From: Anaeromyxobacteraceae bacterium
GTDB taxonomy: Bacteria; Myxococcota; Myxococcia; Myxococcales; Anaeromyxobacteraceae
Length of the DNA: 64,000 nucleotides
Reading direction: 5' to 3'
Assembly (NCBI GenBank): GCA_047602405.1
Contig: JASGHJ010000002.1
Span: forward strand, 1,216,001-1,280,000
Each line of letters opens with the position of its first letter. Within the stretch, counting starts at the first letter, position 1. The notes under the pieces are model-generated. The model was not told where the DNA came from and ran no database searches. It saw only the letters and a program-made list of their open reading frames with translations. Shown here piece by piece: positions 7,228 to 51,401 of this stretch. The position numbers and the translations under genes are program-made.

Positions 7228-8725
7228 ATGTCGAGCCCCGCCCAGGATCCGCGCACCCTCACGCCGGCCCTCCCGCCGCCGCGGCTCGTGCTCGCGGGCG
7301 AGCTCGTCGAGCCCGCCGACGGCGGCCTCCTCCCGGTCGTGAACCCCGCGACGGGCGCGCACCTGTGCGACGCGCCCGCGGCGGGCTCGCGCGACGTGGA
7401 CGCGGCGGTGCGCGCGGCGCGGCGCGCGTTCGAGGCGGGCCCGTGGCGCACCATGGGTCCCCGCGCGCGCGGCGCGCTCCTGCGCAAGCTCGCGGAGGCG
7501 CTGCAGGCCCGGCGGGAGGCCTTCGCGCTCGTCGAGTCGCTCGAGAACGGGAAGACCTTCGGCGAGGCGATCCGCGGGGACGTGGCCCCGGGGGCGGCGA
7601 CGCTGGCGTGGTGGTCGGAGGTGCCCGGGCGCATCCTCGGCGAGGTGCTGCCGGTCGAGGGGCCGTTCCAGGCGCTCTCGCTGCGGGAGCCGCTCGGCGT
7701 GGTCGCCGCGATCGTGCCCTGGAACTACCCGACCTGCCTCGCCTGCTGGAAGCTCGGCCCGGCGCTCGCGGCGGGGAACACCGTGGTCCTCAAGCCGTCG
7801 GAGCTGACGCCGCTCACCGCGCTCATGCTCGGCGCGCTCGCGCTCGAGGTCGGCTTCCCGCCCGGCGTCCTGAACGTGCTGCCCGGGCTCGGCGAGGTGG
7901 CCGGCGAGGCGCTGGCGCGCCACCCCGACGTGGACAAGGTCGCGTTCACCGGGTCGATCCGGACCGCGCGGCGGCTCCTCGCGGCGTCGGGCGAGACCAA
8001 CCTCAAGAAGCTCTCGCTCGAGCTCGGCGGGAAGAGCCCGCAGCTCGTCTTCGCCGACGCGGACCTCGAGGCCGCGGCCGAGGCGTGCACCTGGGGCGTG
8101 TTCGGCAACAAGGGCGAGATCTGCAACGCCGGCTCGCGCGTGCTCGTGGAGGCACCGGCCTACGACGCCTTCGTCGAGGCGCTCGCCGCGCGGGCCCGGC
8201 GGCTCGTGGTCGGCAATCCCCTCGAATCCCGCCACCGAGGTGGGCGCGCTCGTGTCGGCCCGCCAGCGCGAGGCGGTGCTGGGCTGGGTGGCGCGCGGCC
8301 GCGAGGAGGGCGCCCGGCTCGTCGAGGGCGGGGGCCGCGTCGTCGACGGCGCGCTCGCCCGCGGCAACTTCGTGCGCCCGGCCGTGTTCGCGGACGTCGC
8401 GCCCGGCGCGGCCATCGCGCAGGAGGAGATCTTCGGCCCGGTGGTGGCCTGCCTCCGCTTCGAGCGGGAGGACGAGGCGGTCGCGCTCGCCAACGGCACC
8501 CGCTACGGGCTCGCGGCCGCGCTCTGGACGGCCGACGTCGCCCGCGCCCAATCCCTCGCGCGGCGCCTGCAGGCCGGGGTGGTCTGGATCAACTGCTTCA
8601 ACGCGTTCGACGACGCCGCGCCGTTCGGCGGCGTGAAGCAGTCGGGCTGGGGCCGCGACCTCTCGCACCACGCGCTCGAGGGTTACCTCTCGCACAAGGC
8701 CGTGTGGACCCGGCTCCCGGAGTGA
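7228..8725 (+). CDS. Aldehyde dehydrogenase (PuuC-like), +1 frameshift at GAATC 8224-8228
   Basis: IVPWNYP, LKPSELTP, FTGS, LELGGKSP, GEICNAGSR, then EEIFGPV and PFGGVKQSGWGR in the next frame. Removing one A restores GNPLDPATEVGALVS. Span is 3n+1. Confidence 0.9.
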
Positions 8726-8727
8726 CC

Positions 8728-10152
8728 ATGCCCCCGCCCGTCGAACAGGCCATCTCCGATCGCGCCGGCGCCCCGCCGGCGGCCGACCCCGCGCCCGCGT
8801 CCGAGGCCACGCGCCTCGAGGCCTGGCTCGCCGAGCGGGGCATCGCCCACGCGAAGCTCGGCGCCTTCGACGTGGACGGCGTGTGGCGCGGCAAGTACGT
8901 CTCGATCGAGAAGCTCCTGTCGTCCGTGAAGGGCGGGCTCGGCTTCTGCGACGTGGTCTTCGGCTGGGACCTCTCGGACCAGCTCTACGACAACGCGCGG
9001 CTCACCGGGTGGCACACGGGCTACCCCGACGCGCAGGCCGTGGTGGACACCTCGACGGCGCGGGTCATCCCCTGGGAGCCCGACACCGCGGCGTTCGTCC
9101 TCGACTTCGTGCGGCCCGACGGCGAGCCGCTCGAGGCCTCCCCGCGCCAGCTGCTGCGGCGCGTGGGACGTCGGGCGCGGGCGCTCGGGTTCCTCCCGCG
9201 GGTGGGCGCGGAGTTCGAGTACTTCGTCTTCCGGGAGACGCCCGCCACGCTGCGGCAGAAGGGCTTCCGGGAGCTCGAGCCCTTGTCGCCCGGGATGTTC
9301 GGCTACTCCTGGCTGCGCACCTCCGCGAACGCCGACCTCGTGCACGCCATCGTGGACGGGTGCAACGCGTTCGGCGTGCCGGTCGAGGGCATGCACACCG
9401 AGACCGGCCCCGGCGTGTACGAGACCGCCATCCGCTACGGCGACCTCGAGCTCGCGGCGGACCGGGCCGCGCTCTTCAAGACCGCCGTGAAGGAGCTCTG
9501 CGCCCGCCGCCAGCTCACCGCCTGCTTCATGGCGAAGTGGAGCCCGTCCTTGCCCGGCTGCTCCGGGCACCTCCACGTCTCGCTCTGGAGCCTCGACGGG
9601 GCGCGGAACGCGTTCTTCGACCCCGCCGCCCCGCGGGAGGCGAGCGAGACCCTCCGCCACTTCGTCGGCGGGCAGCTCACGCTCATGCCGGAGCTGACCG
9701 CGCTCTCGTGGCCGACGGTCAACAGCTACAAGCGCAGCGTCGAGCACACCTGGGCCCCGACCACCGCGACGTGGGGCTTCGAGAACCGCACCTGCGCGCT
9801 CCGCGTGATCGGCGGCGGCGCGAAGGGCACGCGCGTGGAGGTCCGCCAGCCCGGCGCCGACGCGAACCCCTACCTCTCGATGGCCGCCGCCCTCGCGGCC
9901 GGGCTGTGGGGCGTCGAGCACCGGGTCGAGCCGCCGGCGCCCTGCGCGGGCAACGGGTACGCGGAGGCGGCCGCGCCGCTCCCCCGGAACCTGCGCGACG
10001 CCACCGCGCTGCTCGCCGGCTCGGCGCGCGCCCGCGAGCTCCTCGGCGAGGCCTTCGTGGACCACTTCGTCCGGACCCGCGAGTGGGAGGTCCGGCAGCA
10101 CGAGCGCGCGGTGACGAGCTGGGAGCTCGAGCGGTACCTCGAGCTCGTCTGA
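8728..10152 (+). CDS. Glutamine synthetase family protein (gamma-glutamyl-amine ligase, PuuA-like)
   Basis: DVDGVWRGK, GYPD, GAEFEYF, HTETGPGVYE, FMAK, GCSGHLHVS, TWGFENRTCALRV, EVRQPGADANPY. Confidence 0.9.
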   Translation: MPPPVEQAISDRAGAPPAADPAPASEATRLEAWLAERGIAHAKLGAFDVDGVWRGKYVSIEKLLSSVKGGLGFCDVVFGWDLSDQLYDNARLTGWHTGYPDAQAVVDTSTARVIPWEPDTAAFVLDFVRPDGEPLEASPRQLLRRVGRRARALGFLPRVGAEFEYFVFRETPATLRQKGFRELEPLSPGMFGYSWLRTSANADLVHAIVDGCNAFGVPVEGMHTETGPGVYETAIRYGDLELAADRAALFKTAVKELCARRQLTACFMAKWSPSLPGCSGHLHVSLWSLDGARNAFFDPAAPREASETLRHFVGGQLTLMPELTALSWPTVNSYKRSVEHTWAPTTATWGFENRTCALRVIGGGAKGTRVEVRQPGADANPYLSMAAALAAGLWGVEHRVEPPAPCAGNGYAEAAAPLPRNLRDATALLAGSARARELLGEAFVDHFVRTREWEVRQHERAVTSWELERYLELV

Positions 10153-10162
10153 GGAGGCGGCG

Positions 10163-11348
10163 ATGGAGCACTTCGACCTGCCCGCGGCGCCGGGCGTGAC
10201 CGAGCTCTCGTGGCCGACGCGGGTGACCCTCGGGCCGGGGGCCCTCGCGCGCCTGCCGGCCGTGCTCGCCCGCGCCGGGATCCGCCGGCCGCTCGTGGTC
10301 TGCGACCCCGGGGTCGCGCGCGCCGGCCTCGCGGGGCGCGTGCACCGGCTCCTCGAGGAGGCGGACCTGCGCGCCGCCCGGTTCGAGGAGGTGTCGGCGA
10401 ACCCGACCGACCGCGACGCCGACGCCGGCCTCGAGGCCTACCGGCGCGGGGCGTGCGACGGGATCGTCGCGCTCGGCGGCGGCAGCGCCATCGACGCCGG
10501 CAAGCTCGTGCAGCTCCTCGTGCACCACCCGCCGCCGCTCTCCCGCTACGACGACGCCGCCGGGGGCGATCGCCTGATCACCGACGCGCTCCCGCCGCTC
10601 GTCGCGATCCCGACGACCGCGGGCACCGGCTCCGAGGTGGGCCGCTCGGCCGTGGTGACGCTCCCCGAGACCGGCCGGAAGACCGTCGTCTTCAGCCCGC
10701 ACCTCCTGCCGCGCGCGGCCGTCTGCGACCCCGAGCTCACGGTCGGCCTCCCGCCCCACGTCACCGCCGCGACGGGCATGGACGCGCTCACCCACTGCCT
10801 CGAGGCGTACGTCGCGAGGGGGTTCCACCCGCTCGCGGACGCCGTGGCGCTCGACGGCTTGCGCCGGGTCGCGCGCTCGCTCCCGATCGCCTTCCGCGCG
10901 CCCGCGGAGCTCGCCGCGCGCACCGACATGATGGTCGCCGCGATGGAGGGCGCGATGGCCTTCCAGAAGGGGCTCGGGGCCGCGCACGCGCTCGCCCACG
11001 CGCTCACGCCGGTCGCCGGGCTCCACCACGGCCTCGCGAACGCGATCGTGTTGCCCGCGGTGATGGCGTTCAACGCCGGGGCGGCGACCGCGCGGCTCGC
11101 GCGCGTCGCGATCGTCCTCGGCGAGCCCGAGGGAGGGGCGCCCGCGGCGCTCGCGGAGGCGGCGATCGACCGGGTGCGCCGGCTCGCCGCCGTGCTCGGC
11201 CTGCCCGCCCGGCTGCGCGACGCGGGCGTGCGCGAGGAGCAGCTGCCGGAGAATCGCGCACAAGGCGTTCGCGGACGCCTCGCACCTCGGGAACCCGCGC
11301 CCGTGCACCGAGGCCGACCTGCTCGGCCTCGCGCGCGACGCGTTCTGA
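10163..11348 (+). CDS. Iron-containing alcohol dehydrogenase, +1 frameshift at GAATC 11251-11255
   Basis: GGGSAIDAGK, IPTTAGTGSEV, GMDALTHCLE, HALAH, HHGLANA. Removing one A gives the typical end PEIAHKAFADASHLGNPRPC...DAF with stop at 11346-11348. Confidence 0.9.
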
Positions 11349-11373
11349 GGCGAGGCCCGCGGCGGGCGACGCG

Positions 11374-12714
11374 CTACGGCGCGGCTGCGACCTTCCGCTC
11401 CGCCTCGTCGAGCGCGGCCGCGGCGCGGGCGAGCTCGTCGGGGGTGCGGAAGGGGCGGGGCTCGAACGCGGCGGACATCGGCGTGCCCCACTCCTCGCGC
11501 GGCGCCTCGAGGCCCGGGAAGTAGCGGGGCCGCTTCGGCTTCAGCGCCGCCACGGCCTCGGCGAGGGGCGAGCCGAGCACCTCCGCGGCGCCCTCGACGG
11601 CGAGGATCCGCTCGGCACGCCAGCGGAGCTCGAGGAGGCGTCCGAAGCCCTCCTGGAAGATCCGCTTCAGCGGGACCTCGGCGAGCGCGGCGGCGGCGAC
11701 CGCGACGACGCCCGCGGCGGAGCCGCTCCCGGCCCGGGCGCGCAGGTCGAGCCCGAGCTCGACGAGCCCGCGGGCCTCCGACAGCGCCTCGCGCACGCGC
11801 TCGGGGTCGCCGGGGTCCACCCGGTTCGCGACGAGCACGGCGTTCGCGGCGGTGACGAGCTCCGCGTGGACGGCGTCCTTCGGGTCGGGCTCGAGCGCGG
11901 CGACGGCGCGGTCGAGGAGCGTGCCGCGATCGAGCTCGGCGAGGAGGAAGCCGCCCGGCCGCGCCGGGGCGCCGGAGGGGGCGGGCTCCGACGCGGCGCG
12001 CGGCGGGCGCGCGAACCACGAGAGCGCCTCCTCGAGCGGCGGGTAGCCGAGGTCGGCGAGGCGGCCGGCGCGCCAGCGGAGCGCGGTCTCCTCGAGCTCG
12101 CTCGGGAGCTCGAAGCGGAGGGACGACATGAGCCGCGAGGCCGCGAACGGATCCTCGGCGTAGAGGTCGTCCACGATCCCGCGCACGGCGGAGTACTCGG
12201 CGCCCTCGACGAGGAACTCGACGACGAACTTGTTCTCGGGCGTCCGCATGAAGTGCGTCGACTCGAGCTCGGGGTCCTCGTCCTGCTCGAGGTCGTGGAC
12301 CCGCAGGGTCTCCTTGAGCGTGAGGTAGAGCACCTCGCGATCGATCCCGGTGAGCTTCGCGGCCCACCGCGACGCGGCCTTCGGGTCGGTGAGCGACCCG
12401 GCCCGCGCGGCGCGCAGCCAGGGCAGGGCCTTCGCGGGCTCGAAGTGCTCGCCCGTCCAGGCGTCGAGATCGAGGAGCGTCTTGAACTGGCCCGTCGAGG
12501 CGAGCGGGACGAGCCCCGCCGCGTCCTGGAAGCCGACGTCCCGGATGACGAGGTACAGCTCGTCCGCCGGCAGCGCGCGCACGAGCGCCTGCGGATCCCG
12601 CGCCTCGAGGATGAGGTCGAGCCGCTGCCGCCCGCGCGCCGCCGAGAGGGCGATGCGCGCGTCCCGCAGCTCGGCGGGCGCGAGGCGCCGGTCCGGTCGC
12701 TCCGGGCGGGTCAT
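11374..12714 (-). CDS. Conserved myxobacterial protein (DUF6178-like)
   Basis: Long ORF with GC3-biased codons; LYLVIRDVG, LDLDAW, ELEETALRWRAGRLADLGYP resemble this family from memory. Confidence 0.7.
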   Translation of the reverse strand: MTRPERPDRRLAPAELRDARIALSAARGRQRLDLILEARDPQALVRALPADELYLVIRDVGFQDAAGLVPLASTGQFKTLLDLDAWTGEHFEPAKALPWLRAARAGSLTDPKAASRWAAKLTGIDREVLYLTLKETLRVHDLEQDEDPELESTHFMRTPENKFVVEFLVEGAEYSAVRGIVDDLYAEDPFAASRLMSSLRFELPSELEETALRWRAGRLADLGYPPLEEALSWFARPPRAASEPAPSGAPARPGGFLLAELDRGTLLDRAVAALEPDPKDAVHAELVTAANAVLVANRVDPGDPERVREALSEARGLVELGLDLRARAGSGSAAGVVAVAAAALAEVPLKRIFQEGFGRLLELRWRAERILAVEGAAEVLGSPLAEAVAALKPKRPRYFPGLEAPREEWGTPMSAAFEPRPFRTPDELARAAAALDEAERKVAAAP

Positions 12715-12768
12715 GGCGGGGGCCGCGGCGGCGGGCGAGGGCTGGCGGGCCCGCGCCGCGACGGGGTG

Positions 12769-12993
12769 CTACGCGTGCGCGCCGGCGGCGCGGTTCATCC
12801 CGCGGCCGGCCTTCAGCACCTTGCCGGCCTTGAGGCAGCGGGAGCAGACGCGGGCGTGCCGGATCTCGCCCTTGTCCTGGATGCGGACCGAGCGGAGGTT
12901 CGGCAGGGAGCGCGTCTTGTTCTTGTTGTTCGCGTGGGAGACGGTGTTCCCGACGAGCGGGCCCTTCCCACAAACTTCGCAGCGGCGTGCCAT
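12769..12993 (-). CDS. rpmB: 50S ribosomal protein L28 (zinc-binding form)
   Basis: [33 protein letters not shown]...[11 protein letters not shown]; upstream TTGCTT-N16-TAAGAT at 13061-13088. Confidence 0.97.
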
Positions 12994-13100
12994 GGCGAGG
13001 TGCTCCAAGATGCAGGGGTTCCGGCGCGCGACTTCGCTCCGAATCCCGAAAAGGGTCGGCATCTTACGCAAAACGCTCCACAAAGCAAGGGGGACCGGGC

Positions 13101-14654: not shown

Positions 14655-14666
14655 GGGCGGTAGAGA

Positions 14667-15341
14667 TTATCCGAGGTCCGGGTTCCGCAGGGCGCCGACC
14701 TCACGAGGGCCCGCTCCCTCGACCCGCACCCGGCGCCCGGCCACCGAGAGCCGCCCGGCGGCGTACCAGCCGATCGCCGCCGGGTAGAGCCGGTGCTCCT
14801 CGACGAGGACCCGGGCGGCGAGCGCCTCCTCCGTGTCGTCGGGCAGGACCGGCACCGCCGCCTGCGCGATCACCGGCCCGGTGTCGGTGCCCTCGTCGAC
14901 GAAGTGCACGGTGCAACCGGAGACCCGCGCGCCGTACGCGAGGGCCTGCCGGTGCGCGTGCAGGCCGGGGAAGCTCGGCAGGAGCGCCGGGTGGATGTTC
15001 ATGACCCGCGGGCAGCCGCGGCTCGCCGCGCTCGGGCCGAACGCCGCGAGGAACCCGGGCGTCACGAGCCGCATCCACCCGCACAGGCAGACGAGGTCCA
15101 CGCCGCGCGCCTGGAGCGCGGCCGCGAGCTCGCGATCGTAGGCGGCGCGGTCGGCGACGCCCTTCGACGGTACGAGCAGCGCCTCGACGCCGGCCCTCCG
15201 CGCCCGCTCGAGCGCGCCCGCGCCCGGGACGTTCACGGCCACGACCGCGACCGTGGCGTCGATCCGGCCCGCGGCGCAGGCGTCGAGGATGGCCTGCAGG
15301 TTGGTGCCGCCGCCGGAGGCGAGGACGCCGAGCCTCGTCAA
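14667..15341 (-). CDS. purN: Phosphoribosylglycinamide formyltransferase
   Basis: TTG start overlaps the purM stop; [45 protein letters not shown]. Confidence 0.96.
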
Positions 15342-16369: not shown

Positions 16370-16474
16370 GGCCCGGCCCTTACCGGAACCCGGGCGGCAG
16401 GGCAAGGCTCTGCTGATGGCCGGCTCCCGCCCTGCGGCGGGAGCGCGCCGCCGCCACGGCCGCCGCGCGGCGGC

Positions 16475-16531: not shown

Positions 16532-16648
16532 CGGCGTTCCGGGGGAAGCGCAGCATACCAAACGTGAGATTGACCGCCAGCCCGTGACCGCGCTTCAGGC
16601 GGGGGCCCCGGCGGCCGGCCGGAAACCTGCTACCATCCCCGGCGCCCT

Positions 16649-18983
16649 ATGGCCGGACTCCGACGCCTGCTGCGCCTCGACGCGTTCCGGCTGGCGCTGT
16701 ACGTCGGGCTCCTCTTTCCCCTGCTGCACTTCGTCAACCTCGTGCGGGGGGTCGACCTGCCGGTCATCTCCCGGGTCGAGCACGCGGCCCAGGACTACGC
16801 CCTCACCCGGCTCCGCGGCCCCCGCCCGACCTCCGGACGGGTCGTCATCGTCGCCATCGACAACAAGTCGGTCCGCGAGGAGGGGCGCTGGCCCTGGCCT
16901 CGCGAGAAGATGGCGAAGCTCGTCGAGCAGATGGGCAAGGGCGGGGTCGCCTCGGTCGGCTTCGATATCGTGTGGGACGCCGACGACGAGGTGGGGCGCC
17001 GCCTCGCCCGCGTGGCGTCGGTGGTGAAGACCGCGAAGGGGGAGGCCCGGCCCGGCGGGCCGCTCGAGGACGCCTGGGCCGCCGCCCAGAACCCCGACCC
17101 CACGGTCGCGGTCGACCGGGATCCCACCGAGCTCCTCGCCGACGCCATCGAGGACGCCAAGAACGTCACGCTCGGCTTCACCTTCCTCACCCCGGATCAG
17201 GTGGCGGGCCTGGGCGCGGACGTCGACGACGACCTCCAGAAGGTCTCCTTCTTCCGGATCGACCCCGTCCACGTCATCGAGGGCGGCCGGCTCGTGCCGG
17301 TCGAGCCGGCGCCGCAGCTGCCGCAGCACTGGGCGGGCGTGGTCCGGCCGCTCGACGTGCTCCTCTCGGTCGCCTCGTCCGGCGGCTACTTCACCTCCTC
17401 GACCGACGACGACGGCGTCATCCGCAGGTACGTGACGGTCGGGGCGGTGGGCCCCTCGAACTTCGCCTCCCTGGGCATCGCCACGCTCGCGCGCACGCTC
17501 GGGCCGGAGGGTCAGGTGGCGCGGGTGACACCCATCGCGAAGGTGCGCGGGTCGCGCTTCCTCGCGGCGGTGCGGCTCGGCGACGTCACGGTCGACGTCG
17601 ACGACGCCGGCTTCGCGTACCTCAACTACTACGGGCAGTACCGGGACTTCCCCACCTGGTCGGCGACCGACGTGCTGCACGGCAAGATCCCGCCCGACCA
17701 GATGCGCGGGAAGGTGGCGGTCGTCGGGACCACCGCGGTGGCCACCTGGGATCAGCGGGTCACGCCCTTCGACGCGTTCGCGCCCGGGGTGATCACCCAC
17801 GCCACGTTCATGGAGAACGTGCTCCGGGGCGAGCTCCTGGTGCGCACGCAGACGGTGGTCGTCGCCGAGGTGGTGGTGCTGGTCCTCACCGCCTTCGGGC
17901 TGGCGCTCCTCTTCTCGCGGGTGTCGTCGCTGCTCTCCGCGCCGGCGCTCGTCGTCGCGGCGGGCGTCACCGCGGGCACGGGGGTCGTCGCGCTGCAGCG
18001 CTTCAACCTGCTCCTCGCGGTGGCGCTGCCGATCATGCAGCAGTTCGCCATCTTCCTCGCCGCGACCTCCTACCGGTTCTTCAACGAGGAGCGCGAGCGG
18101 CGCAAGGCGCGCGAGACCTTCAGCCGCTTCCTCGCGCCGGCCATCGTGGAGCAGGTGCTCGAGCGCGAGGGGTCGCTGAAGCTCGGCGGCGAGAAGCGCG
18201 AGCTCACCTGCCTCTTCGCCGACATCCGCGGGTTCACGACGCTCTCGGAGAAGCTCGACCCCCACGTGCTCCTCGAGGTGCTGAACGAGTACCTCACGCC
18301 GATGACCGACATCATCGTGCAGGAGCACCAGGGCACGCTCGACAAGTACATCGGCGACGCGATCATGGCGTTCTGGGGTGCGCCCTCGCCGCAGGACGAC
18401 CACGCCCTGCGCGCCTGCCGCGCCGCGCTCGGGATGATCCGCAAGCTCTCGGAGCTCCGGGTCGGCTGGCGGGAGCGCAACCTCCCGGACATCGACATCG
18501 GGGTGGGGCTCAACACCGGCCCGATGTCGGTCGGGTTCCTCGGCAGCCAGGACCGCTTCTACAACTACACGGTGCTGGGCGACGCGGTGAACCTCTCCTC
18601 GCGCCTCGAGGGCGCGAACCGGCAGTACGGTACGCACATCCTCATCGGCCCCATCACCTGCGAGCGGGTGAAGGACCACATGGTGCTGCGCGAGGTCGAC
18701 CGTGTCCGCGTGAAGGGCAAGCGCGAGCCGGTGCGGATCTTCGAGCTCCTCGGCGAGGCGCCCGCGTCGCCCGGGCAGGCGGCCTTCCTCGAGGCGTTCT
18801 CCTGGGGCATCTCCGCGTACCAGGCGCAGCGCTGGGACGAGGCGATCGGCCGGTTCCGCGAGGCCGCCCGCCTCGCCGGCGGCGACGAGACGAGTGAGAT
18901 TCTACGTGGCCCGGTGCGAGGCGATGCGTCGCGAGCCACCCGGACCCCAGTGGGACGGGGTCTACGAGATGCACAGCAAGTGA
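16649..18983 (+). CDS. CHASE2-domain class III adenylate cyclase with C-terminal TPR, +1 frameshift at GATTC 18898-18902
   Basis: VVIVAIDNKS..GRWPWPR, three TM helices, FADIRGFT, DKYIGDAIMAFWG, YTVLGDAVNLSSRLE. Removing one T gives SEIYVARCEAM...WDGVYEMHSK stop. Confidence 0.92.
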
Positions 18984-26626: not shown

Positions 26627-27286
26627 GTGACCCGCCCCCGGGCGCCGCGTGCGCCCCGCACCGAGAATCCGACCAGCACCGAACCCGCGGCGACCGAGCC
26701 CGAGAAGCGCCGGGCGATCCTGCACGCCGCGGTCCGCGTCTTCGCGGAGAAGGGCTACCACGGCTGCCGGATCGCCGACGTCGCGAAGGCCGCGGGCGTC
26801 GCCTACGGGCTCGTCTACCACTACTTCCAGTCGAAGGAGGAGCTCCTCGAGAGCGTCTCCGCGGAGCAGTGGGAGATCCTCGTGAACGCGCTCCGCGAGG
26901 TCGAGCAGGGGCAGGGCTCCGCGCCGGAGAAGCTCGCCGGCATGCTCGCGTTCGTGTTCGACGTCTTCAAGACCGCGCCCGCCGCGGTCCGGGTGCTGCT
27001 CCTCGAGGTGACGCGCACGCCGCACGCGCTCCGCGCGGGCTCGACCCGCGAGGCGTTCGAGGTGGCGGTCCGGCTGATCTCCGAGGTCATCCGGCGCGGC
27101 CAGGAGCGCGGCGAGCTCCGCGGCGACATCGACCCGCTCACCTCGGCCGCCAGCGTGCTCGGCGCGCTCGAGCTCGCGGTGACCGCGATGGTCATCGGCA
27201 TCGTGCCGGCGCCGGACGAGGCGGGCATCGACCGCGCCCGCGACCAGGTGACCGCGCTCGTGCTCGGGGGCCTCAGGCCCCGTTGA
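26627..27286 (+). CDS. TetR/AcrR family transcriptional regulator
   Basis: RRAILHAAVRVFAEKGYHGCRIADVAKAAGVAYGLVYHYFQSKEELL; start placed 6 nt after GACAAT. Confidence 0.92.
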   Translation: MTRPRAPRAPRTENPTSTEPAATEPEKRRAILHAAVRVFAEKGYHGCRIADVAKAAGVAYGLVYHYFQSKEELLESVSAEQWEILVNALREVEQGQGSAPEKLAGMLAFVFDVFKTAPAAVRVLLLEVTRTPHALRAGSTREAFEVAVRLISEVIRRGQERGELRGDIDPLTSAASVLGALELAVTAMVIGIVPAPDEAGIDRARDQVTALVLGGLRPR

Positions 27287-34276: not shown

Positions 34277-36599
34277 CTAGGGCGCCTCCCGCAGCACCGC
34301 CAGCGGGTCGAGCACGTCATCGGCGTGCACCCGCCGCACCGCCCGGCCGTCCGACAGGAGCCGGACCGCCCCCTCGTCCGTGCGCAGCACCACCGCCCCG
34401 CCCGCGCGCCAGCGCGCGAGCGCCTCCGCGTGCGGGAAGCCGTACCGGTGCTCGGCGGAGTTGCTCACCACCGCGAGCCGCGGCCCCCATTCACCGGACA
34501 GGGTCGCCGCGACGAACGGCCCGGTCGAGGAGCGCCGGCTGCCGTGGTGCGGGATCTTCACGACGGTGGAGGCGAGGCCGCCCCGCGCGATCGCGAGCGC
34601 CTCGCCCTCCGGCTCGACGTCGCCGGGGAACAGGAACGAGGTCCCGCGGTAGGTCACCTTCAGCACGAGCGACGCGTCGTTCTCGATGAGCCCCTCCCGC
34701 GGACCGCCGAGGACCTCGAGCCGCACGCCGGCGCGCTCGATGAGGGCGCCCGGCTCGAGCGCCTCCGGGTGGAGCCGCTCGAGCAAGGCGCGCGTCTCGC
34801 CGCCGCCGAGCTGGCCGTTCGAGAGGAACCGGCCCACGGGCAGCGCGTCCGCGACCGCGGCCATCCCGAGCGCGTGGTCGGGGTGCGGGTGGGACACGAA
34901 CGCGAGCGCGACCTCCCGCACGCCGAGGTCGCGCAGCAGCGGCACCACGTCGCGCGCGCCCGGGTCGGGGCCGCCGCCCGGCGAGCCGCCCGCGTCGACG
35001 AGCACCGCCGCGCCGTCCGGCAGCCTGAGGAGCGCGGAGTCGCCGTGCCCGACGTACAGGAAGGTGACCTCGAGCCCGCCGCGGGCGCGCGCGGCGGCCG
35101 CCCGGAGCGGCCCGGGCAGGGCGAGCGCGAGCGCCGCGCCGGCCCAGGCGAGCGCGCGCGCCCGGCCGCGGAGCCGCGTGCCGAGCGCCGCGAGCGCATA
35201 ACACGCGACGGTGAAGCCCAGCCCGGGCGCCGCGAGCCCCACGACCGACCAGCGCGGGGCCGCCGCCGCGTCGGAGAGCGCGAGGAGCGCCCAGGCGAGG
35301 GGCCGCGCGAGGAGGAGCACGGGGGCGGCGAGCCCGGGGGAGGCCGAGGCGAGGAGCGCCGCGATCGTGGCGAGCACGGTGAGCCCCGCGCCGATCGGCA
35401 CGCCCGCGACGTTCGCGAGGAGCCCGAGCACGGGGAGCTGGCGGAAGTGCGTCGCGAGCACGGGCGCGGTCGCGAGGGAGGCCGCGACGCTCGCGCATCC
35501 GCCCGAGACGAGCGGCTCGACGAGGCGCGCCCGCCAGCTGCCCCGCGGCGGCGGCGCCCACGGCAGGGCGCGACGGAGCGGCCCGGACCAGAGCACGAGC
35601 CCCGCCACCGCGCCGAAGGAGAGCTGCATCGACGGATTCGAGCGCCGAGCCCGGGTCGCCGGCGAGGAGCACGATGGCCGAGAGCGCGAGCGTGTCCGCG
35701 GCGCGCGGCTCGCGGGAGAGGAGGGTGCCGGCGAGCGCGACCCCGGCGGCGAACGCCGCGCGGAGCACCGGGACGCCGGCCCCGGTCGCGACCGCGTAGG
35801 CGAGCGTGACGGGGAGGGCGACCGCGGCCGCGAGCCGGCGCGGATCGGCCCGGGCGGCGATCCCGTCGCTCCGCACGAGCAGCCCGCGCAGGAGCCGCTC
35901 GAGGCCGAGCGCGACCACGACGAGGTGCAGCCCGGAGACGGCGAGGATGTGGGCGAGGCCGCTCCGCGCGAAGGACCGGACGGTCTCGGGGTCGAGGGCG
36001 CCGCGATCGCCGGTGCCGATGGCCCGGACGAGCGCCGCCTCGCGGGGCGGGAGCGCGGCCCGGGTGGCCTCCGCGAGCCGCTCGCGCGCCCGCTCGAGCC
36101 AGGCGACCGGGCTGGGGGGACCGGTCCGGACGAGGGGCCCCACCGCCTGGCCGGTCCAGGTGACCCCGCTCGCGGCGAGCCGGGCGGCCGCGTCCCGGCC
36201 GCCCGGGTTCCGGGCCGGCGCGGGGGCCTTCAGGGTCGCGGCGAGAAGGACCCGGTCGCCGAGGGCCAGGGGGTGAGGGATGGGGCGGGCGCCGAGCTCG
36301 GCGACGGTGCCGTCGGCGGTGCGCACGCGGAAGCGGATCCGGTCGCCCAGGCGGTCGGGGACGGTGACCACCCGGCCCTCGAGCCGGACGGGGCCATCGG
36401 GGGTGGGACCGGGGGTGCGTGCCCTGGAGGTGCCGGCGGTCCACCAGCCGGCCGTCAGGAACGCGAGTGGCGTCAGGGGTGGGACGAGGACGAAGGCGAG
36501 GGCGGCCTGGCCACCTGCGGGGAGGGGCGGGCCGAGGAGGCCCAGGCAGACTCCGGAAAGGAAGCCCAGGGCGGCCCGGGCGAGGGGCGAAGGGGTCAT
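34277..36599 (-). CDS. comEC: DNA uptake channel ComEC/Rec2, +1 frameshift at GATTC 35635-35639
   Basis: RNPGG, GLAHILAVSGLH, LLAN, MBL domain (VGHGDS, SHPHPDH, KIPHHGS, YGFPH). Removing one base joins ALDPSMQLSF. Span is 3n+1. Confidence 0.92.
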
Positions 36600-36772: not shown

Positions 36773-37312
36773 ATGTCCGCACCGCAGGGAGCACCCGCAG
36801 CACCGGCAGCCACCCCCGTCCCGGCGCCGACCTTCAAGGTCGGTGACAAGGCCGTCTACCCCGGCCACGGCGTCGGCGAGGTCATGGGGATTGAGCACAA
36901 GGAGGTCGCCGGCCAGCGGCAGTCCTTCTACGTGCTCCGCATCCTCGAGAACGGGATGAAGATCATGATCCCGATGAACAAGGTCGGCTCGGTCGGCCTG
37001 CGCGAGATCATCGGGGAGAAGGACGTGCGCCGGGTCTACTCGATCCTCCGCGAGAAGGAGGTCTCGGTCGACTCGACGACCTGGAACCGCCGGTACCGCG
37101 AGTACACCGACAAGATCAAGACCGGCTCCGTCTTCGAGATCGCGGAGGTCCTGCGCGACCTCTACCTCATCCGCTCCGACAAGGACCTCTCCTTCGGCGA
37201 GCGCAAGATGCTCGACACCGCCCGGTCGCTGCTCATCAAGGAGCTCGCGATCGCGAAGGCGTGTAACGAGGACGACGTCGAGGACGATCTCAAGAAGATC
37301 TTCAACACCTGA
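36773..37312 (+). CDS. carD: CarD/CdnL family RNA polymerase-binding regulator
   Basis: FKVGDKAVYPGHGVG, VGLREII, TWNRRYRE, LSFGERKMLD; upstream of ispDF. Confidence 0.95.
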   Translation: MSAPQGAPAAPAATPVPAPTFKVGDKAVYPGHGVGEVMGIEHKEVAGQRQSFYVLRILENGMKIMIPMNKVGSVGLREIIGEKDVRRVYSILREKEVSVDSTTWNRRYREYTDKIKTGSVFEIAEVLRDLYLIRSDKDLSFGERKMLDTARSLLIKELAIAKACNEDDVEDDLKKIFNT

Positions 37313-39305: not shown

Positions 39306-39328
39306 CCACCAGCACGCACCGAACCACC

Positions 39329-40768
<1,440 letters not shown>

Positions 40769-42689: not shown

Positions 42690-42741
42690 GCGCCAAACTA
42701 TACCCGCAGCGTGTGTCGGGGGGAGCCGTTAGAAGGAGGGC

Positions 42742-44841: not shown

Positions 44842-44929
44842 CCTTCCGTCTGCCCCGAGCGTAGCGGCCGCGTGAGTGGCCGCGGAGACGAGGGGCGGTC
44901 GGGGCACGGCCCGAGGTAGACTGCGCCCC

Positions 44930-46468
44930 GTGCCCGGCCTCTCCCTCTGCATGATCGTCCGCGACGAGGCGGAGCTCCTGCCGGAGTTCCTCCGCCGCGC
45001 GCGCGGGCTCTGGGACGAGCTCCGGGTCGTGGACACGGGCTCGAGGGACGCCTCGCCACGGCTCCTCGCGGAGGCGGGCGCGACCGTGCTGCACGCGCCG
45101 TGGTCCGGCGACTTCGCCGAGGCCCGCAACCGGTCGCTCGAGGGCGCGACCGGCGAGTGGATTGCGGTGCTCGACGCCGACGAGATGGTCTCGGAGGCGT
45201 TCGTGAGGGACGCGCGCGGGCTCGTCGGGGACCCCTCGGCCGGCGCGGCCACGCTGCGGATGCTGAACCGCATGCCCCACGGGCACGTCCGGGAGGCGCG
45301 CCTCCTGCGCCTGTTTCGCAACGACCCCTCCATCCGGTTCCGGCACGCCATCCACGAGGACGCCTCCGAGGCGGTGTCGGCGCACCTCGCCGCGACCGGG
45401 CGGCGGCTCGTCCACCTCGAGGGCCCGGTCGACCACCTCGGCTACGTCCGGGCGCGCGCCGCGGCGAAGGACAAGAAGGCCCGCGACGTCGCGCTCCTCG
45501 AGCGGTGCCTCGCCGCGGACCCGCGGGACCTCTACGCCCACCTGAAGCTCCTCGAGCAGGCGCGCTTCTGGGGCGACCAGGAGCTGTGGGGGAGGGCCGC
45601 CGCGCGCGCGCGCGACGCGGTCGACGCCGCGGGTGCGGGGCTCGCGGCGGTCCCGCACGGCGGGGAGCTGCTCGTGCTGGTCGTGGACGGCCTCGGGCTC
45701 GCCCCGGCCGCGGCGCTCGCCTGGCTCGACGCGCGGGAGGCGCGGGCGGCCCCCTCGGCGGCGCTCCGGTTGCGCCGCGGGGAGCTCCTCGAGCGGCTCG
45801 GTCGACTGCCCGAGGCGGCCGCGGCCTTCGAAGGGGCGCGCGCGCTCGATGCGGTCACCGCGAACCTGCAGCTCGCGACGGTGCGGCCTCTGCTCGGGCT
45901 CGCGCGGCTGGCCATCGCGCGCGGGCAGCTCGACGAGGCCCGCGGGCGGGTCGACGAGGCGCTCGGGCTCGCCCCGCGGGACCCGGAGGCGCTGCTCGCG
46001 GCGGTGACGCTCGCGGGCGCGGCCGGCGGCGGCGCGGGGATGCGCGCGCTCGCGGCCGCGCACGCGGCGCGCCACGGGGAGAGCGAGGAGCTCGCGGCCG
46101 CGGTGGGGGAGGGGGCGCTCCGGCTCGGCGACCGCGCGCTCGCGATCGAGGTGCTCTCGCGCGGCGCGCCGACGCGGCTCCTCGCCGTCGCGCGGCTCGC
46201 GGACGGAGACCTCGAAGGCGCCCGGGCCGCGGCCGGGGCCGCGGCAGGGGACGATCCCGCGGCAGCGCTCGCGGCGGTGCTCGCGGACCTCGCCGGCGGG
46301 CGGGACGCGGCGCTCGAGCTCGAGCTGTCGGTGGAGGAGGCCGCCGCCGCGCTGCGCGGGATGGCGGCGCTCCTCAGGGCCGCGGCGCGGCCCGGGGTGC
46401 GGGAGGCGCTGCGGGCCGCGGCGCCTGCGCTCGCGGGGCCGTTCCCGTGGCTGCCGGGCGCGCTGTGA
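44930..46468 (+). CDS. GT2 family glycosyltransferase with TPR-like C-terminus
   Basis: LSLCMIVRDE, VDTGSRD, DFAEARN, LDADE, IHE, HLGY; start 7 nt after TAGACT. Confidence 0.88.
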   Translation: MPGLSLCMIVRDEAELLPEFLRRARGLWDELRVVDTGSRDASPRLLAEAGATVLHAPWSGDFAEARNRSLEGATGEWIAVLDADEMVSEAFVRDARGLVGDPSAGAATLRMLNRMPHGHVREARLLRLFRNDPSIRFRHAIHEDASEAVSAHLAATGRRLVHLEGPVDHLGYVRARAAAKDKKARDVALLERCLAADPRDLYAHLKLLEQARFWGDQELWGRAAARARDAVDAAGAGLAAVPHGGELLVLVVDGLGLAPAAALAWLDAREARAAPSAALRLRRGELLERLGRLPEAAAAFEGARALDAVTANLQLATVRPLLGLARLAIARGQLDEARGRVDEALGLAPRDPEALLAAVTLAGAAGGGAGMRALAAAHAARHGESEELAAAVGEGALRLGDRALAIEVLSRGAPTRLLAVARLADGDLEGARAAAGAAAGDDPAAALAAVLADLAGGRDAALELELSVEEAAAALRGMAALLRAAARPGVREALRAAAPALAGPFPWLPGAL

Positions 46469-47330
46469 CGCCGTCGGCGGCCTCGTCGAACCCCTGCTCG
46501 AGCCCCTCGACCGCGTGCTTCAGCGCGCCGACGGTCGCGTTCACGGCGTCGACGGACCTGCGCTGCTCGTTGGCCGCGTCGTGCGAGCGCTGGACCGCGT
46601 CCTGCAGCTCCTTCACCGCCTTGCCGAGCTCGGCGAGCGTCCGCTGGATCTCGGAGGAGCTGTCCTTCGTCTCCTCGGCGAGGCGGGTCATGTCCTTCGC
46701 GACCACGCCGAACGCCCGGCCGTGATCGCCGGCGCGCGTGGCCTCGATCGAGCCGTTGATGCTGAGGATGCGCGCCTGCTGCGCGATGCGGTGCACGGCG
46801 GCGAGTGTGATCTCGGCCTGCTCGAGCTTCGCGACCGCCACCTGCACGGCGCGGGCGGTGGTGTCGGCGCTCGCCTGGGCCGTGGAGGCGCCGGCCTCGA
46901 GCCGCAGCGAGAGCTCGTCGATGCCCGCGAAGACCTGGCCCGCGGTGCGGTGGAGCGCCTGGGTCTGGTGGAGCTCCTTCAACCACCCGGAGAGCACGCG
47001 CGCCGCGATGTGCGCGACCGGCCGCGTGACCTCGAGCTTCCCGGCGATGCCGAAGGTCGCGACGCGGCGGCCGTTCAGCACGATGGGGCAGTTCAGCCCC
47101 TCCTTGACGAGCGGGTTCGCGGCGGCCTCGTCGGCGGTGACCGCGTACTCGTCGCACGAGCCCTCGAGCACCTTCTTCGCGAACGCGTGCGACGTGCCGA
47201 TCCGCTCGCGGACCGTCGCGCGGACGATGGTCCCCGTCTCGTCGCAGGCGATGACGTGGAAGCCCGTCTCGGCCCGGATGAAGTCCAGGAACCGGTCGGT
47301 CAGCTTCAGGAACTCAGCGTCGAGGGGCAT
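46374..47330 (-). CDS. Soluble chemoreceptor-like protein: sugar-diacid recognition-like domain plus partial MCP signalling domain
   Basis: DETGTIV..RIGT.H, KEGLNCPI; then IAQQARILSINGSIEATRAGDHGRAFGVVA; no TM helix. Confidence 0.75.
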   Translation of the reverse strand: MPLDAEFLKLTDRFLDFIRAETGFHVIACDETGTIVRATVRERIGTSHAFAKKVLEGSCDEYAVTADEAAANPLVKEGLNCPIVLNGRRVATFGIAGKLEVTRPVAHIAARVLSGWLKELHQTQALHRTAGQVFAGIDELSLRLEAGASTAQASADTTARAVQVAVAKLEQAEITLAAVHRIAQQARILSINGSIEATRAGDHGRAFGVVAKDMTRLAEETKDSSSEIQRTLAELGKAVKELQDAVQRSHDAANEQRRSVDAVNATVGALKHAVEGLEQGFDEAADGVTARPAATGTAPRAQAPRPAAPPAPRAAPRP

Positions 47331-47353
47331 AGGTAACCCAGCGAAGCCTCTAG

Positions 47354-47369
47354 AGCATGGGCCGTGCCA
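47354..47369 (-). promoter_or_regulatory. sigma54 promoter of the chemoreceptor-like gene
   Basis: TGGCACGGCCCATGCT (GG-N10-GC) 23 nt upstream of the ATG. Confidence 0.7.
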
Positions 47370-47511
47370 CGGCGCACGGGCGTGAGGTCGCGGCTACGGC
47401 CGGGGTCCGCCACCACCCCGGGTCTCAGGGGAGGGGCCCGGGTGTGCCCCGGCGGGCTGCGGGGGAGAATTCTACTCGACGTGCGGGTGCACACCGCTAC
47501 AGTGCCCGAAG

Positions 47512-48394
47512 ATGACCTCCCTCCTGCTTCCCCTGCTGGCCGCGGTCGCGGCGGCGGGCCCGGCTGCGCCGCAGGAGGGCGCTGACCCACGACCGCCCGG
47601 TGAAGCGTCGACGGCTGCCCTCCGCGTGCGCGTGTTCCTCCGCGACGGGCGGACCTTCGACGCCGAGCTCGTCCGGCGCGGTGGGGGCGTGCTCGAGATT
47701 CCGCCGCGCCGGGCAGCTCGAGACCTACCCGGACGCGGACGTGCGGGAGGTCCTGGAGCTCGACAGCCTCCGCGAGGACAAGGGGGGCCCCGCGACGCCG
47801 GCCCACCTCGGGCATCTGCACCTGCCCTCGGCGTTCGGCCCCGCGCGCGGGGCGCTCGCGGTCCGGGTCACGCCGGCGACGGCCGGGGTCACCTACGGCG
47901 CCCTCGCCTGGCTCACGGTGTCGGCCGGCGTGCAGGGTGATCTCACCGGGTCGGGCACGTTCCCGTCGCCGGCCCTCGTGGCGGGGCTGGATCTCCACGC
48001 GGCGCCGCTCTCCTGGCTCCACGCGTCCGCGGGGCTGCGCGGCTTCGGGTACCGCCGCGGCCTCACCGTCTACGGGGCGGGGGCGGTGACGCTGGGCTCC
48101 CCGGACGTCAACTTCACGCTCGCGGCGGGACCCCCGCACGCCTGGGCCGGGAGGTTCGGCGCCTTCGACCGCGTCGGGTACGGCGCGGCCATGGACGTGC
48201 GCATCCTGCGGTTCGCCTCGCTGGTCGCGGAGGCGTGGCTCTCCTCCGAGCGGGAGCACGACCTCGCCGCGGGCGGCGCGGTGCGGCTCATGCGCGGTGC
48301 GTTCTTCGCGGACCTCGGGGTCATCGCCTCGACGCGCTCCGCCCTGCCGTGGGTCGGGCTCGCGTGGACGCCCGCCCGGAGGGCGCAGCCATGA
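47512..48394 (+). CDS. Exported/outer membrane beta-rich protein, +1 frameshift at GATTC 47697-47701
   Basis: Signal peptide MTSLLLPLLAAVAAAG. Removing one T joins VLEIRRAGQLETYPD. Amphipathic beta strands ending PWVGLAW. Span is 3n+1. Confidence 0.65.
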
Positions 48395-50622
48395 AGGCCT
48401 GGGGCCTCCTCGTCGTGGCGCTCGGCGCCGGCGGGTGCGTCCTGCTCGACCGGCACACGCTCGAGGTCGAGCCGACGGACGCGATCCTGGTCGCCGGACC
48501 GCCCACGTTCCAGCTGGACGTCCGGAGCCCGGCGAGGGAGGTGGAGGTCGCCGTCGACGGCGTCCTCGCCGGCAGGTACGCGCCCGGGCGACACGACCTC
48601 GCGCTCCCGGCCAGCGTGGCCGTCGCCGGCGTGCACGAGCTCGTCGTCCGGGAGCTGGGCCTCCCCTCCCCGTCGACCGTGCGCCGGGCGCTCGGGTTCT
48701 ACCCCTCGGGCGTCGGGATCCAGTCCCAGTGGCCGGCCGTGAACGAGGTCGCCCCCGACGGCCCGATCGCGCTCGGCGTGACCTTCCCGGTGCAGCTCCT
48801 GTGTCCGCTCGTCACGCAGGAGAACGCGTGGCTCGAGTCCGGGGGCGCGCGGCTCGCGGTGAAGCCGCGCTGCTCGGACGACGCCCGCACCATCCTCTTC
48901 GACCTGGCGGGAGGGCTGTCGGCGCAGGGCGCGGTGGAGGCGGTCGTCTCCGGACGACTGTTCGGCCAGCCGGGCGAGCTCAGGGCGGGGTGGGTCGGGG
49001 GCACGGTCCAGCTCTCGGTGGCCATCGCGTCGCCGCTGCCGAACGACCCGCCGACCTCGACGTACGTCATCGCCGTGTCGGCGCAGCTGGGGGCGGCGTC
49101 GCCGGCGCAGCTCGAGCTCTCGGCGGGATCGATCGACCTGGCGACGCTCGGCGGCCTGCCCCAGCAGAAGTCCTGGCAGGTCACCTGGGAGACCGCGCAG
49201 GTCCCCGACGGCGACTATCCACTCACCGTGACGGCGCCCGCCCCGTTCAAGGTCGTCTACGGCTCCCCCGGCGCGCCGACCCTCACGGTGGACAACCTCC
49301 CGCCCGGGCTCGCGCAGTGCCCGGTGCTCGCGTCCTACCGCGCGTGCATCCGGCCCGTGCTCGACGGCCCCGGGTTCCTGGGCGACGCGCGGCTCGTGCT
49401 GGCCGGCCTCACCGTGCCCTTCTTCGTCGATCACGACGGGAACTACTGCCCGAAGGCCGACGACGGGCCGAGCTTCGAGCCGTTGACCCCGCCCGCGTAC
49501 GGGCCCACCGACCTGGACGGCACCGCGCGGCTGGAGTTCGACGTCTACACGAAGCAGTTCAGGAAGGGCCTCGTCACCTGCGACCAGGCGCTGCCGCGGT
49601 GGACGCCGCTGTGGGGCGACCCGGTCCCCGGGCTCACCGCGTCCGGCCGGATCATGCACGTGCAGGACACCGACTGCGTGAGCGGCGTCTGCCCCCCGGC
49701 GCCCCGCGACGCCGTCCTGGCGCTCGGCGCCGGCGCCGACGCAGGGAAGGTCAGGCTCTGGACGCGCTCCGGCGCGGCGTGGAGCGCCTCCGGACCGCTC
49801 AACCACGAGGCCGGGGCGGTCGCGAGCGGGCTCGCGGGCCGGTACTGGATCGAGCGCGTCGGCGGGGGAGCGGGGGTCGTGCGCTCCGACGGTCCCGACC
49901 CGCTGAACCTCGTGGCGGGTGCCGACGCGACGTCGCTCGCCGGGGCGATGCACGAGCCCTGGGTCCTCACCCAGGACGTCGCGGCCTGGTCGGAGCAGGC
50001 GTCGCCATCGGGCCGGGTGGTGGTCGTCGCGGGGGCCCCGCTCCCGCGCCGCGACCCCGCCGCGGTCGCCGACGAGCCCGCCGTGATGTACGCGTGGGCG
50101 CTCCTCGACGGGGTCTCCGCGGAGAAGCTCGTGGCCTTCACGGAGCGGGTACCCGGAGGCGCCGCCCGCGTTCGCGCCGCGCGCGTCTCGAGCGGCGGGG
50201 TGACCTTCCTCGACGCGATCGACAGCCTCGACGTGGCCTCCGACGCCCGCACCCCGACCGTGTTCGGCGCGTTCGGGCTGGCCGCCATTGCCTGGCTGGA
50301 GCACGACCGCGTGCTGGCCCAGGTCGTGACGACCGCCCCTCCGGGCGCGGTGATCCCGCTCGGCGACGCCGCGCGGAAGGCGCGCGAGCCGCGGTTCGAC
50401 CCGAACGGCCGCACGCCGGTGCTCTACTGGATCGAGGAGACCCCGGCGGGCGACGCGATCCGCGTGGCGCGTTACCGGTCGGAGGGCTGGACGTACGACC
50501 CGAGCCCGGTGAACGCGCCGGTCGCGGGCGCGGTGCCGTCCTTCGCCGTCGACGCGAACCGGGTGAGCTGGGTGGACGGCGCGGGCGCGGTCCACGTCCG
50601 GTTCGCGAACTTCCCGAGGTGA
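48391..50622 (+). CDS. Large hypothetical lipoprotein (743 aa) with Ig-like segments
   Basis: ATGA overlap with the previous gene; MKAWGLLVVALGAGGC lipobox; Big-like WETAQVPDGDYPLTVTA..LTVDN. Confidence 0.7.
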   Translation: MKAWGLLVVALGAGGCVLLDRHTLEVEPTDAILVAGPPTFQLDVRSPAREVEVAVDGVLAGRYAPGRHDLALPASVAVAGVHELVVRELGLPSPSTVRRALGFYPSGVGIQSQWPAVNEVAPDGPIALGVTFPVQLLCPLVTQENAWLESGGARLAVKPRCSDDARTILFDLAGGLSAQGAVEAVVSGRLFGQPGELRAGWVGGTVQLSVAIASPLPNDPPTSTYVIAVSAQLGAASPAQLELSAGSIDLATLGGLPQQKSWQVTWETAQVPDGDYPLTVTAPAPFKVVYGSPGAPTLTVDNLPPGLAQCPVLASYRACIRPVLDGPGFLGDARLVLAGLTVPFFVDHDGNYCPKADDGPSFEPLTPPAYGPTDLDGTARLEFDVYTKQFRKGLVTCDQALPRWTPLWGDPVPGLTASGRIMHVQDTDCVSGVCPPAPRDAVLALGAGADAGKVRLWTRSGAAWSASGPLNHEAGAVASGLAGRYWIERVGGGAGVVRSDGPDPLNLVAGADATSLAGAMHEPWVLTQDVAAWSEQASPSGRVVVVAGAPLPRRDPAAVADEPAVMYAWALLDGVSAEKLVAFTERVPGGAARVRAARVSSGGVTFLDAIDSLDVASDARTPTVFGAFGLAAIAWLEHDRVLAQVVTTAPPGAVIPLGDAARKAREPRFDPNGRTPVLYWIEETPAGDAIRVARYRSEGWTYDPSPVNAPVAGAVPSFAVDANRVSWVDGAGAVHVRFANFPR

Positions 50623-50626
50623 GGGC

Positions 50627-51401
50627 TCAGCCCTCCTTCTCCACCTTCCAGATTCTGCTCTGCCGGCCAGCGCCGGGCCCACTCCGGCGGGGCGTAGGTG
50701 GTGTAGGTCGTCGACGCCTTCTCCGCCGGCCGGAGCTCGACGAGATCCACGACCCTGAGGCCGTTCGCGAGGAACAGACGGATCCAGTCGCCGTAGCCGA
50801 GCATGAACTCGACCATGCCGCGATCGAAGCCCGCGGGCGGGGTCGTGTCCTCGAAGCGGTGCATGCCGAAGTAGTCGAGGACGAGGCGCTTGCCGACCGC
50901 CTGCTTCTCGGGGTCCCAGCAGGCGTGGAGCCACGGCGTCGCGGCGTTGAACGCGAGCCGGCCGCCCTTGCGCAGGAGCCGCGCGACCTCCGGGACCCAG
51001 CGGTGCGGATCGACGAAGCCGGGCGCGCCGTGGTCGGCGAAGACGAGGTCGAAGGCGGAGGAGGGGAGGCCGGTCTCGTCGGCGGAGGCGTGGACGAGCC
51101 GCACCTCGACGCCCGCCTCGCGCACCTGGTCCCGGGCGAAGGCGAGCTGCGCCTCGGACACGTCGAGGCCGGTCATGCGCGCGCCCCTCCGCGCGAGCGC
51201 GATCGCCCACTGCGCGCCGCCGCAGCCGAGCTCGAGCACGTCCTTGCCGGCGACGTCGCCGAGGACGCGGAGCTCGCGCTCCGGCAGGCCCCAGACGCCC
51301 CACCTCGGCTCGGTCTTCGAGAGCGTCGCCGCGTTGCGCCGCTGGTAGTCGGCGGAGTCGGCGTTCCAAACGGCCTGGTTGCGGCGGACGTCGTCGTGCA
51401 T
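50627..51401 (-). CDS. Class I SAM-dependent methyltransferase, +1 frameshift at GATTC 50651-50655
   Basis: DVLELGCGGAQW, GLDVSEAQL, EVARLLRKGG. Removing one base gives the end WPAEQIWKVEKEG stop and removes a 151-nt overlap with the convergent gene. Confidence 0.88.

Follow-up and report, generated by a model that had tools for sequence, protein, structure and literature searches.

We have found that genes in a 64,000-nucleotide stretch of an Anaeromyxobacteraceae genome (the window; C2:1216001-1280000 of source genome G000, C1 and C2 being its two contigs) are broken by single surplus bases, and that such bases cluster at two short motifs, GATC and GAAGAGC/GCTCTTC, across the 6.16-Mb assembly (74% GC, completeness 98.4%). 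The surplus bases are likely to be errors in the consensus of a Nanopore assembly made from native DNA. They would arise at methylated GATC, which probably carries N6-methyladenine (6mA) from a predicted DpnA-type writer, and at GAAGAGC/GCTCTTC, predicted to be methylated by a fused double methyltransferase. The motif clustering, the absence of the extra bases from a close relative, a G-to-A asymmetry in substitutions and the inventory of modification genes were all observed directly. The finding as such belongs to a known class of artefact.

The original prediction had described six genes of the window as broken by +1 frameshifts in which GATC appears as GAATC or GATTC (together GAWTC). All six pentamers occur in the window sequence exactly at the coordinates listed below, each with one surplus base relative to aligned relatives. 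The reference relative, G010, belongs to the same genus, probably Anaeromyxobacter judging by named homologues, and is ~93% identical across most of the window; it is one base shorter at each of 18898, 35635, 47697 and 50651. G010 reads GATC at 18898 and 50651, and GATC at 35635 and 47697 is only inferred because the letters of G010 differ there. Pfam bore out five of the six gene names, and the gene called an exported protein matched no Pfam family. The lone other shift, which had been placed near 61590, is also real to the assembly, although what had been missed is that it belongs to a separate motif, GAAGAGC being read there as GAAGAAGC. The features are as follows.

8224..8228, plus strand: GAATC in an aldehyde dehydrogenase gene, with one base too many and a TCGATC context; one base shorter in 3/3 relatives among the matches listed; Aldedh 308-461 in the downstream frame; +1 called.
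11251..11255, plus strand: GAATC with a surplus base in an iron alcohol dehydrogenase (Fe-ADH) gene, AGATC context; one base shorter in 5/5 relatives among the matches listed; Fe-ADH C domain, 181/194 positions.
18898..18902, plus strand: GATTC with one base too many, close to where a CHASE2 adenylate/guanylate cyclase gene (Pfam) ends, AGATCT context; GATC in G010; the base at 18900 missing from contigs of 4/4 public runs of related strains.
35635..35639, minus strand: GATTC with a surplus base in comEC; Competence domain 3-120 and 125-267 in two frames; G010 one base shorter.
47697..47701, plus strand: GATTC with one base too many in a gene that matches no Pfam family; G010 one base shorter; +1 called.
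50651..50655, minus strand: GATTC with a surplus base in a class I S-adenosylmethionine (SAM)-dependent methyltransferase gene (Methyltransf_11; by Pfam no DNA methylase); GATC in G010.
61588..61595, minus strand: GAAGAAGC, a surplus base at GAAGAGC/GCTCTTC in a glycoside phosphorylase (SOGP/GH94) gene; G010 one base shorter; SOGP_N and SOGP_2nd in different frames; supported by the motif statistics.
16568..16571, no strand: GATT for GATC of the G010 alignment, a likely substitution miscall by the genome-wide asymmetry, although any one such position could be a true difference between the genomes.
26666..26669, no strand: AATC for GATC of the G010 alignment, a likely substitution miscall.
36889..36892, no strand: GATT for GATC of the G010 alignment, a likely substitution miscall.
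45160..45163, no strand: GATT for GATC of the G010 alignment, a likely substitution miscall.
58537..58540, no strand: AATC for GATC of the G010 alignment, a likely substitution miscall.

The window holds 283 copies of GATC, 7 of GAATC and 10 of GATTC. Six of its 17 GAWTC words are the insertions, one (26665) is a GATC read as AATC, and the remainder are unshifted. The chance of 6/7 shifts falling at GAWTC is ~2e-13.

A genome-wide tally of indels by k-mer, which the original prediction had called for, showed the expected enrichment at GATC. Frameshifts were called with a codon-position model trained on G000, which reports intragenic +1 and -1 shifts where the nearest stop is more than 60 nt away. 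It returned 318 +1 shifts in G000 vs 30 -1 shifts, and GAWTC lay within 12 nt of 170 of the 318, where ~1.8 were expected. Among 1752 GAWTC sites in G000, 473 were callable (1279 were not), and 248 of these 473 carried a +1 shift. The abundant control words GACTC, GAGTC, GAAC, CTGCAG, CTCGAG and CCAGG gave +1 shifts at 0.5-1.0%; small control words exceeding 1% were CAATG (2/31), CAATC (5/167) and GAATG (2/81). When the detector was run on 800 kb of each genome, no +1 shift was called in G010 and 71 were called in G000, 40 of them at GAWTC and 12 at GAAGAGC/GCTCTTC.

Direct alignment led to the same motifs. Of G010, 1.6 Mb was fetched and 1.37 Mb aligned to G000, and in this alignment G000 has 280 isolated single-base insertions and 124 deletions; the events that shift a coding frame number 134 insertions and 14 deletions. 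Of the coding insertions, 84 are at GAWTC, 31 at GAAGAGC/GCTCTTC, 11 beside GATC and 8 elsewhere, so that 126/134 lie at or beside the two motifs. Per site, insertions affect ~1.3% of GATC and ~4.3% of GAAGAGC, a share about three-fold higher. Extrapolation gives ~600 coding breaks across G000, about a tenth of its genes. A scan of 60 of the 134 events found that genes intact in G010 but broken in G000 include rpoB, rpoC, rpsD, secY, ffh, pheS, dnaK, greA and carA/carB (second copies lay outside the scan), and a real cell could not carry breaks in such core genes. No +1 shift was kept in the relatives examined. The suggestion that the broken genes are no pseudogenes, and that errors of assembly tied to a motif point here to a GATC modification, is upheld by the genome-wide clustering and by relatives that lack the extra base.

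It had also been claimed that the flanks of the sites share no longer motif. In fact the context is biased: AGATC is found on one strand at 194/248 error sites vs 34% of all GATC, TCGATC comes next, and TGATCA and CGATCA are never affected. A longer GATC motif was rejected, the bias being a graded one. GANTC, the CcrM motif, was likewise rejected, with the relative reading GATC and GACTC/GAGTC remaining at background.

The second motif was resolved to seven bases. At callable sites in G000, +1 shifts were found at GAAGAAGC in 41/640 cases and at GAAGAGGC in 36/321. Variants of GAAGAGC at position 2, 3 or 7 gave +1 shifts at 0-1.2%, and position 1 was well tested for C, with 0/173. The 6-mer GAAGAG, which we take to be EarI-like, was rejected as the motif because the last-base variants were at background. 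GCTCTTC (1/4) is the site of SapI/BspQI (PMC3017599).

The best candidate for GAAGAGC is predicted to be a fused double methyltransferase that lies on a genomic island with an HNH nuclease, in a SapI-like arrangement. The gene (C1:74423-77143, 906 aa) encodes two methylase domains (SPPY and SPPF) and occurs in 1/92 family genomes. Its island (C1:66400-99000) has lower GC, an integrase and several insertion sequence (IS) copies, and also holds a 420-aa HNH partner that is intact at C1:90939-92198. In 25/32 homologous loci a convergent gene of ~420 aa follows the double methylase, and this partner is HNH-type by weak Pfam and PDB matches and by Atlas. In G000, two identical inverted IS copies of 2662 bp flank the segment holding the methylase, and reverting an inversion between them would restore the convergent methylase/HNH layout. 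Several of the homologous loci are near copies of one another and the set is not independent; across it, GAAGAGC ranks 5th by depletion among 8192 7-mers (21 vs 55.9 expected), and the four 7-mers that are more depleted contain palindromes or poly-A. Like the SapI/BspQI type IIS systems, the locus would combine that same 7-mer with two amino-methylase domains for an asymmetric site and one nuclease gene; unlike them, its methylases are fused into one protein and the inversion parts them from the nuclease. The likeness drawn here is one of site and layout. The link to GAAGAGC is indirect and draws on two independent kinds of evidence, the exact error motif and the depletion of the site in homologous loci.

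The amino-methylases of G000 comprise one beta-class enzyme, the 906-aa double alpha-class enzyme, three gamma-class enzymes and one weak partial N6_N4_Mtase match (C2:2866505); they are the sole class left after the searches for Dam, Dnd/Ssp, Dpd and C5 methylases described below came up empty. The best GATC candidate is predicted to be the beta-class enzyme, an orphan DpnA-type adenine methyltransferase. Its gene (~C2:848180-849030, minus strand) has two breaks of its own in the G000 assembly, one per motif, and the G010 orthologue (L032:1378-2226) is intact. The protein has the beta-class DPPY fold with variable regions of the DpnA type and not of the CcrM type. Its best plasmid matches by bit score were two Neisseria records (245) and the second methylases of DpnII-type three-gene operons (236-242), with CcrM-type proteins reaching up to 209; one further member of a DpnII-type operon scored 207. 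A tree of 13 rows gave three groups but, with long branches and no outgroup, cannot prove DpnA membership. Identity to the second methylase of the three-gene operon of pSRQ700, a plasmid that presumably carries LlaDCHI, is 48% over 252 aa. PMC4190342 describes LlaDCHI as a DpnII-related system that acts on GATC, and both names, pSRQ700 and LlaDCHI, appear in PMC6458302.

The candidate shares with DpnA and the LlaDCHI second methylase the beta-class DPPY, matching variable motifs that follow DPPY and precede FTHSTE, and the lack of the CcrM C-terminal domain. It differs in having, in G000, no adjoining DpnM partner or restriction gene and in being vertically kept in three families of the order. 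No DpnII-type operon surrounds it in G000, where the neighbours are queG and a tetratricopeptide repeat protein and no D12 gene is present. Like Dam and CcrM, it is an orphan adenine methylase retained across a whole clade, and the proposed target, GATC, is that of Dam; in contrast to them it is not of the D12/Dam family, is shorter than CcrM (283 aa, and 238 bits vs a cut-off of 830) and is accompanied by no error excess at GACTC/GAGTC. The gene is present in 84/92 family genomes, including 53/54 of the high-quality ones. In a sample of the order (E 1e-60) it was found in 30/30, 9/9 and 31/31 genomes of three families (70/70) and in 0/50 genomes of six others; the third family, with many genomes of 9-10 Mb, is probably Myxococcaceae. 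In Myxococcus hansupus, single-molecule real-time sequencing detected 6mA at 31.9% of GATC, and no type II methylase was assigned to it (PMC4765838). It is tempting to propose, though we hold this with slightly less than even confidence, that the orphan DpnA-type enzyme writes 6mA at GATC throughout the clade without Dam. It would then join Dam and CcrM as a third type of orphan methylase under conservation, and would account for the partial GATC methylation of M. hansupus that lacks a writer. The footprint would likewise assign GCTCTTC to a widespread, unnamed double-methylase/HNH family. In genome G084 (C136:2103-3634), a D12-class methylase adjoins a beta-class methylase that is 45% identical, likely a true DpnII-type operon, and G084 has the orphan gene as well.

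The same artefact could arise if GATC were modified by one of the gamma-class methylases (C1:160481-162217, C2:3746224-3749262 or C2:2292360-2296147) or at cytosine, as N4-methylcytosine, which we consider unlikely although it is the strongest of the alternatives. In favour, these enzymes may target GATC, the DpnA-type gene is common to the error-free G010, and a search of G010 returned nothing equivalent to the Type II methylase-restriction system at C2:2292360. Against this, no sequence evidence ties the gamma-class enzymes to GATC, the 579-aa gamma-class methylase is also in G010, and the miscalls affect the G immediately 5' of the A, in agreement with published data on 6mA at GATC. The genes at C1:160481-162217 and C2:3746224-3749262 are both common to G010, and the first is found in 2/92 family genomes in a strict search. 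The third, C2:2292360-2296147, joins a Type II methylase, a restriction domain and one additional domain within a single frame of 1262 aa (PADLOC MTase_II and REase_II); the read-through past residue 841 may be an assembly frameshift. CTGCAG and CTCGAG, considered as possible targets of this enzyme, showed no error excess, and no error motif could be traced to it.

The original prediction also allowed for an unusual modification of GATC, whether phosphorothioate, 7-deazaguanine or one yet to be described. In its favour, only a minority of GATC sites are affected, the miscalled base is G, and insertions at GATC are not described in the Nanopore error papers cited here. Phosphorothioate and Dpd systems also touch the G of their site. 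The idea is nevertheless left unsupported, and we regard it as very improbable, because no dnd/ssp, dpdA, C5 methylase or Dam gene was found in this 98%-complete genome. The gene search that had been proposed thus turned up no dam, dnd/ssp or dpdA, but did reveal other amino-methylases, including the DpnA-type candidate. For Dam (D12, PF02086) no G000 protein exceeded the cut-off, the one sub-threshold partial match being the 906-aa enzyme; PF02086 exceeds it in 10/92 family genomes, G000 not among them. For Dnd/Ssp, neither PF01507 (the PAPS-reductase family of DndC/SspD) nor TIGR03185 (DndD) had a match in G000, and there was likewise none to NF041059 (DpdA) or PF00145 (C5 methylases, including those that write 5-methylcytosine at GATC, of the Sau3AI type). 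PF01507 had 0 matches in the whole genomes of both G000 and G010, and 14/14 control genomes have one. The two tRNA-guanine transglycosylase genes of G000 (C2:2792157-2793314 and C2:1478705-1479760) are full-length, of the tRNA type and shared with G010. Phosphorothioate, Dpd, 5-methylcytosine and Dam were rejected, the genes having been sought in G000 and G010 and none found. Furthermore, insertions of the same kind occur at the second motif, which is traced to an amino-methylase. The ~1.3% share of affected GATC reflects consensus calling and does not count as evidence for Dnd-like partial modification.

Substitutions at GATC point to Nanopore sequencing. GATC of G010 appears as AATC or GATT in G000 at 136 sites vs 13 in reverse, the strongest asymmetry of any 4-mer. 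In a first, cruder test these substitutions were mostly synonymous (65:3 vs 80:20 expected), a count that favoured real C-to-T mutation. A context-matched test over sites conserved in both genomes did not favour it: 11/1132 nonsynonymous (0.97%) and 95/7609 synonymous (1.25%) positions were changed. Because 9.4 nonsynonymous changes were expected from context, the substitutions are blind to protein function. Errors at GATC sometimes take swap forms (CAGATC to CGAATC, n=6) or union forms (GAGATC to GGAGATC, n=6), both consistent with purine confusion. In published work, C2T/G2A errors at GATC persist in R10.4.1 assemblies (PMC11610603), motifs show an A2G/G2A excess and, in CycloneSEQ data, native reads have more insertions (bioRxiv 10.64898/2026.01.14.699587), just some copies of a motif are affected (PMC12392509), and methylation-linked Nanopore errors occur at other motifs (PMC10687267). 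G000 resembles these reports in that its errors concentrate at presumably methylated motifs including GATC, are of the G2A/C2T kind, touch part of the copies and survive consensus. They are enriched at the motifs genome-wide, absent from independent assemblies of relatives and blind to gene function, as methylation-linked consensus errors should be.

On a Nanopore platform, reads of one strand would miscall purines just 5' of methyl-A (G as A, AG as GA) and those of the opposite strand would be correct. The consensus would then retain either an incorrect letter, as in AATC, or the two letters together, as in GAATC, AGAATC and GAGATC, the latter giving +1. The DpnA-type enzyme would supply the methyl group at GATC and the double methyltransferase that at GAAGAGC, and neighbouring bases may choose which ~1.3% of GATC and ~4.3% of GAAGAGC sites receive an insertion. 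A modification-linked error on another platform, for example polymerase pausing in PacBio reads, has in its favour that coding insertions far exceed deletions (134 vs 14), that homopolymer errors are rare and that the platform is not on record. We think it most doubtful, since an excess of G-to-A/C-to-T changes at GATC has been published as the signature of R10.4.1 and the swap and union forms fit purine confusion. Real mutation or programmed recoding as the source of the insertions is hardly credible, for although no reads of the G000 strain were found and the crude 65:3 count alone suggested selection, the ~600 extrapolated breaks would include rpoB, rpoC, rpsD, secY, ffh and pheS and no shift is kept in relatives.

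Several results weigh against reading the surplus bases as Nanopore errors at sites methylated by these two enzymes, among them the crude substitution count, the near copies among the loci used for 7-mer depletion and the limits of the 13-row tree. Published errors are mainly substitutions, whereas one-base insertions are about as common in G000. The intact beta-class gene of G010 coexists with an error-free assembly, which requires a different platform or polishing. Three gamma-class methylases remain as alternative GATC candidates, and GATC is not among the main motifs listed for Archangium gephyra (PMC5441343). In nine other relatives (80-100 kb each), G007, G031 and G103 had no +1 shifts and the other six had 131, with GAWTC at just 6. 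By a hand estimate for the four genomes with most shifts, ~0.9 would be expected (P ~4e-4), a weak hint of a family-wide GAWTC footprint. No raw or short reads of the G000 strain were found, the best public runs sharing 21% of sampled words, and for this reason the case for an artefact depends on comparison with relatives, and Nanopore is the presumed platform. The long-contig relatives G004, G012, G045 and G059 have 15-38 +1 shifts per 100 kb, mostly motif-free, and their gene calls are unreliable.

If the surplus bases are consensus errors at methylated motifs, the ~600 extrapolated coding frameshifts and a similar number of substitutions are likely false in a '98% complete' species-representative genome, and pseudogene and gene-loss calls in G000 are to be discounted for that reason. 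The errors also yield two methylation motifs without raw signal. A literature search, with subscription journals and REBASE outside its reach, found nothing published about the methylome of Anaeromyxobacter, this type of insertion or the base modified by SapI methylases. Of lasting use are the warning about assembly quality, the second motif and the hypothesis, open to test, that an orphan DpnA-type enzyme methylates GATC across the clade.

Other differences were noted within the window. An extra base relative to G010 at 16606, in a G/C run, is at neither motif and is also missing from contigs of 4/4 public runs; another at 59193 is likewise at neither motif and leaves the called frame unchanged. 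The block from the aldehyde dehydrogenase to the iron alcohol dehydrogenase gene (7185-11370) is missing at this position in G010 and is found in G012, G004 and G002 at 76-78% identity.

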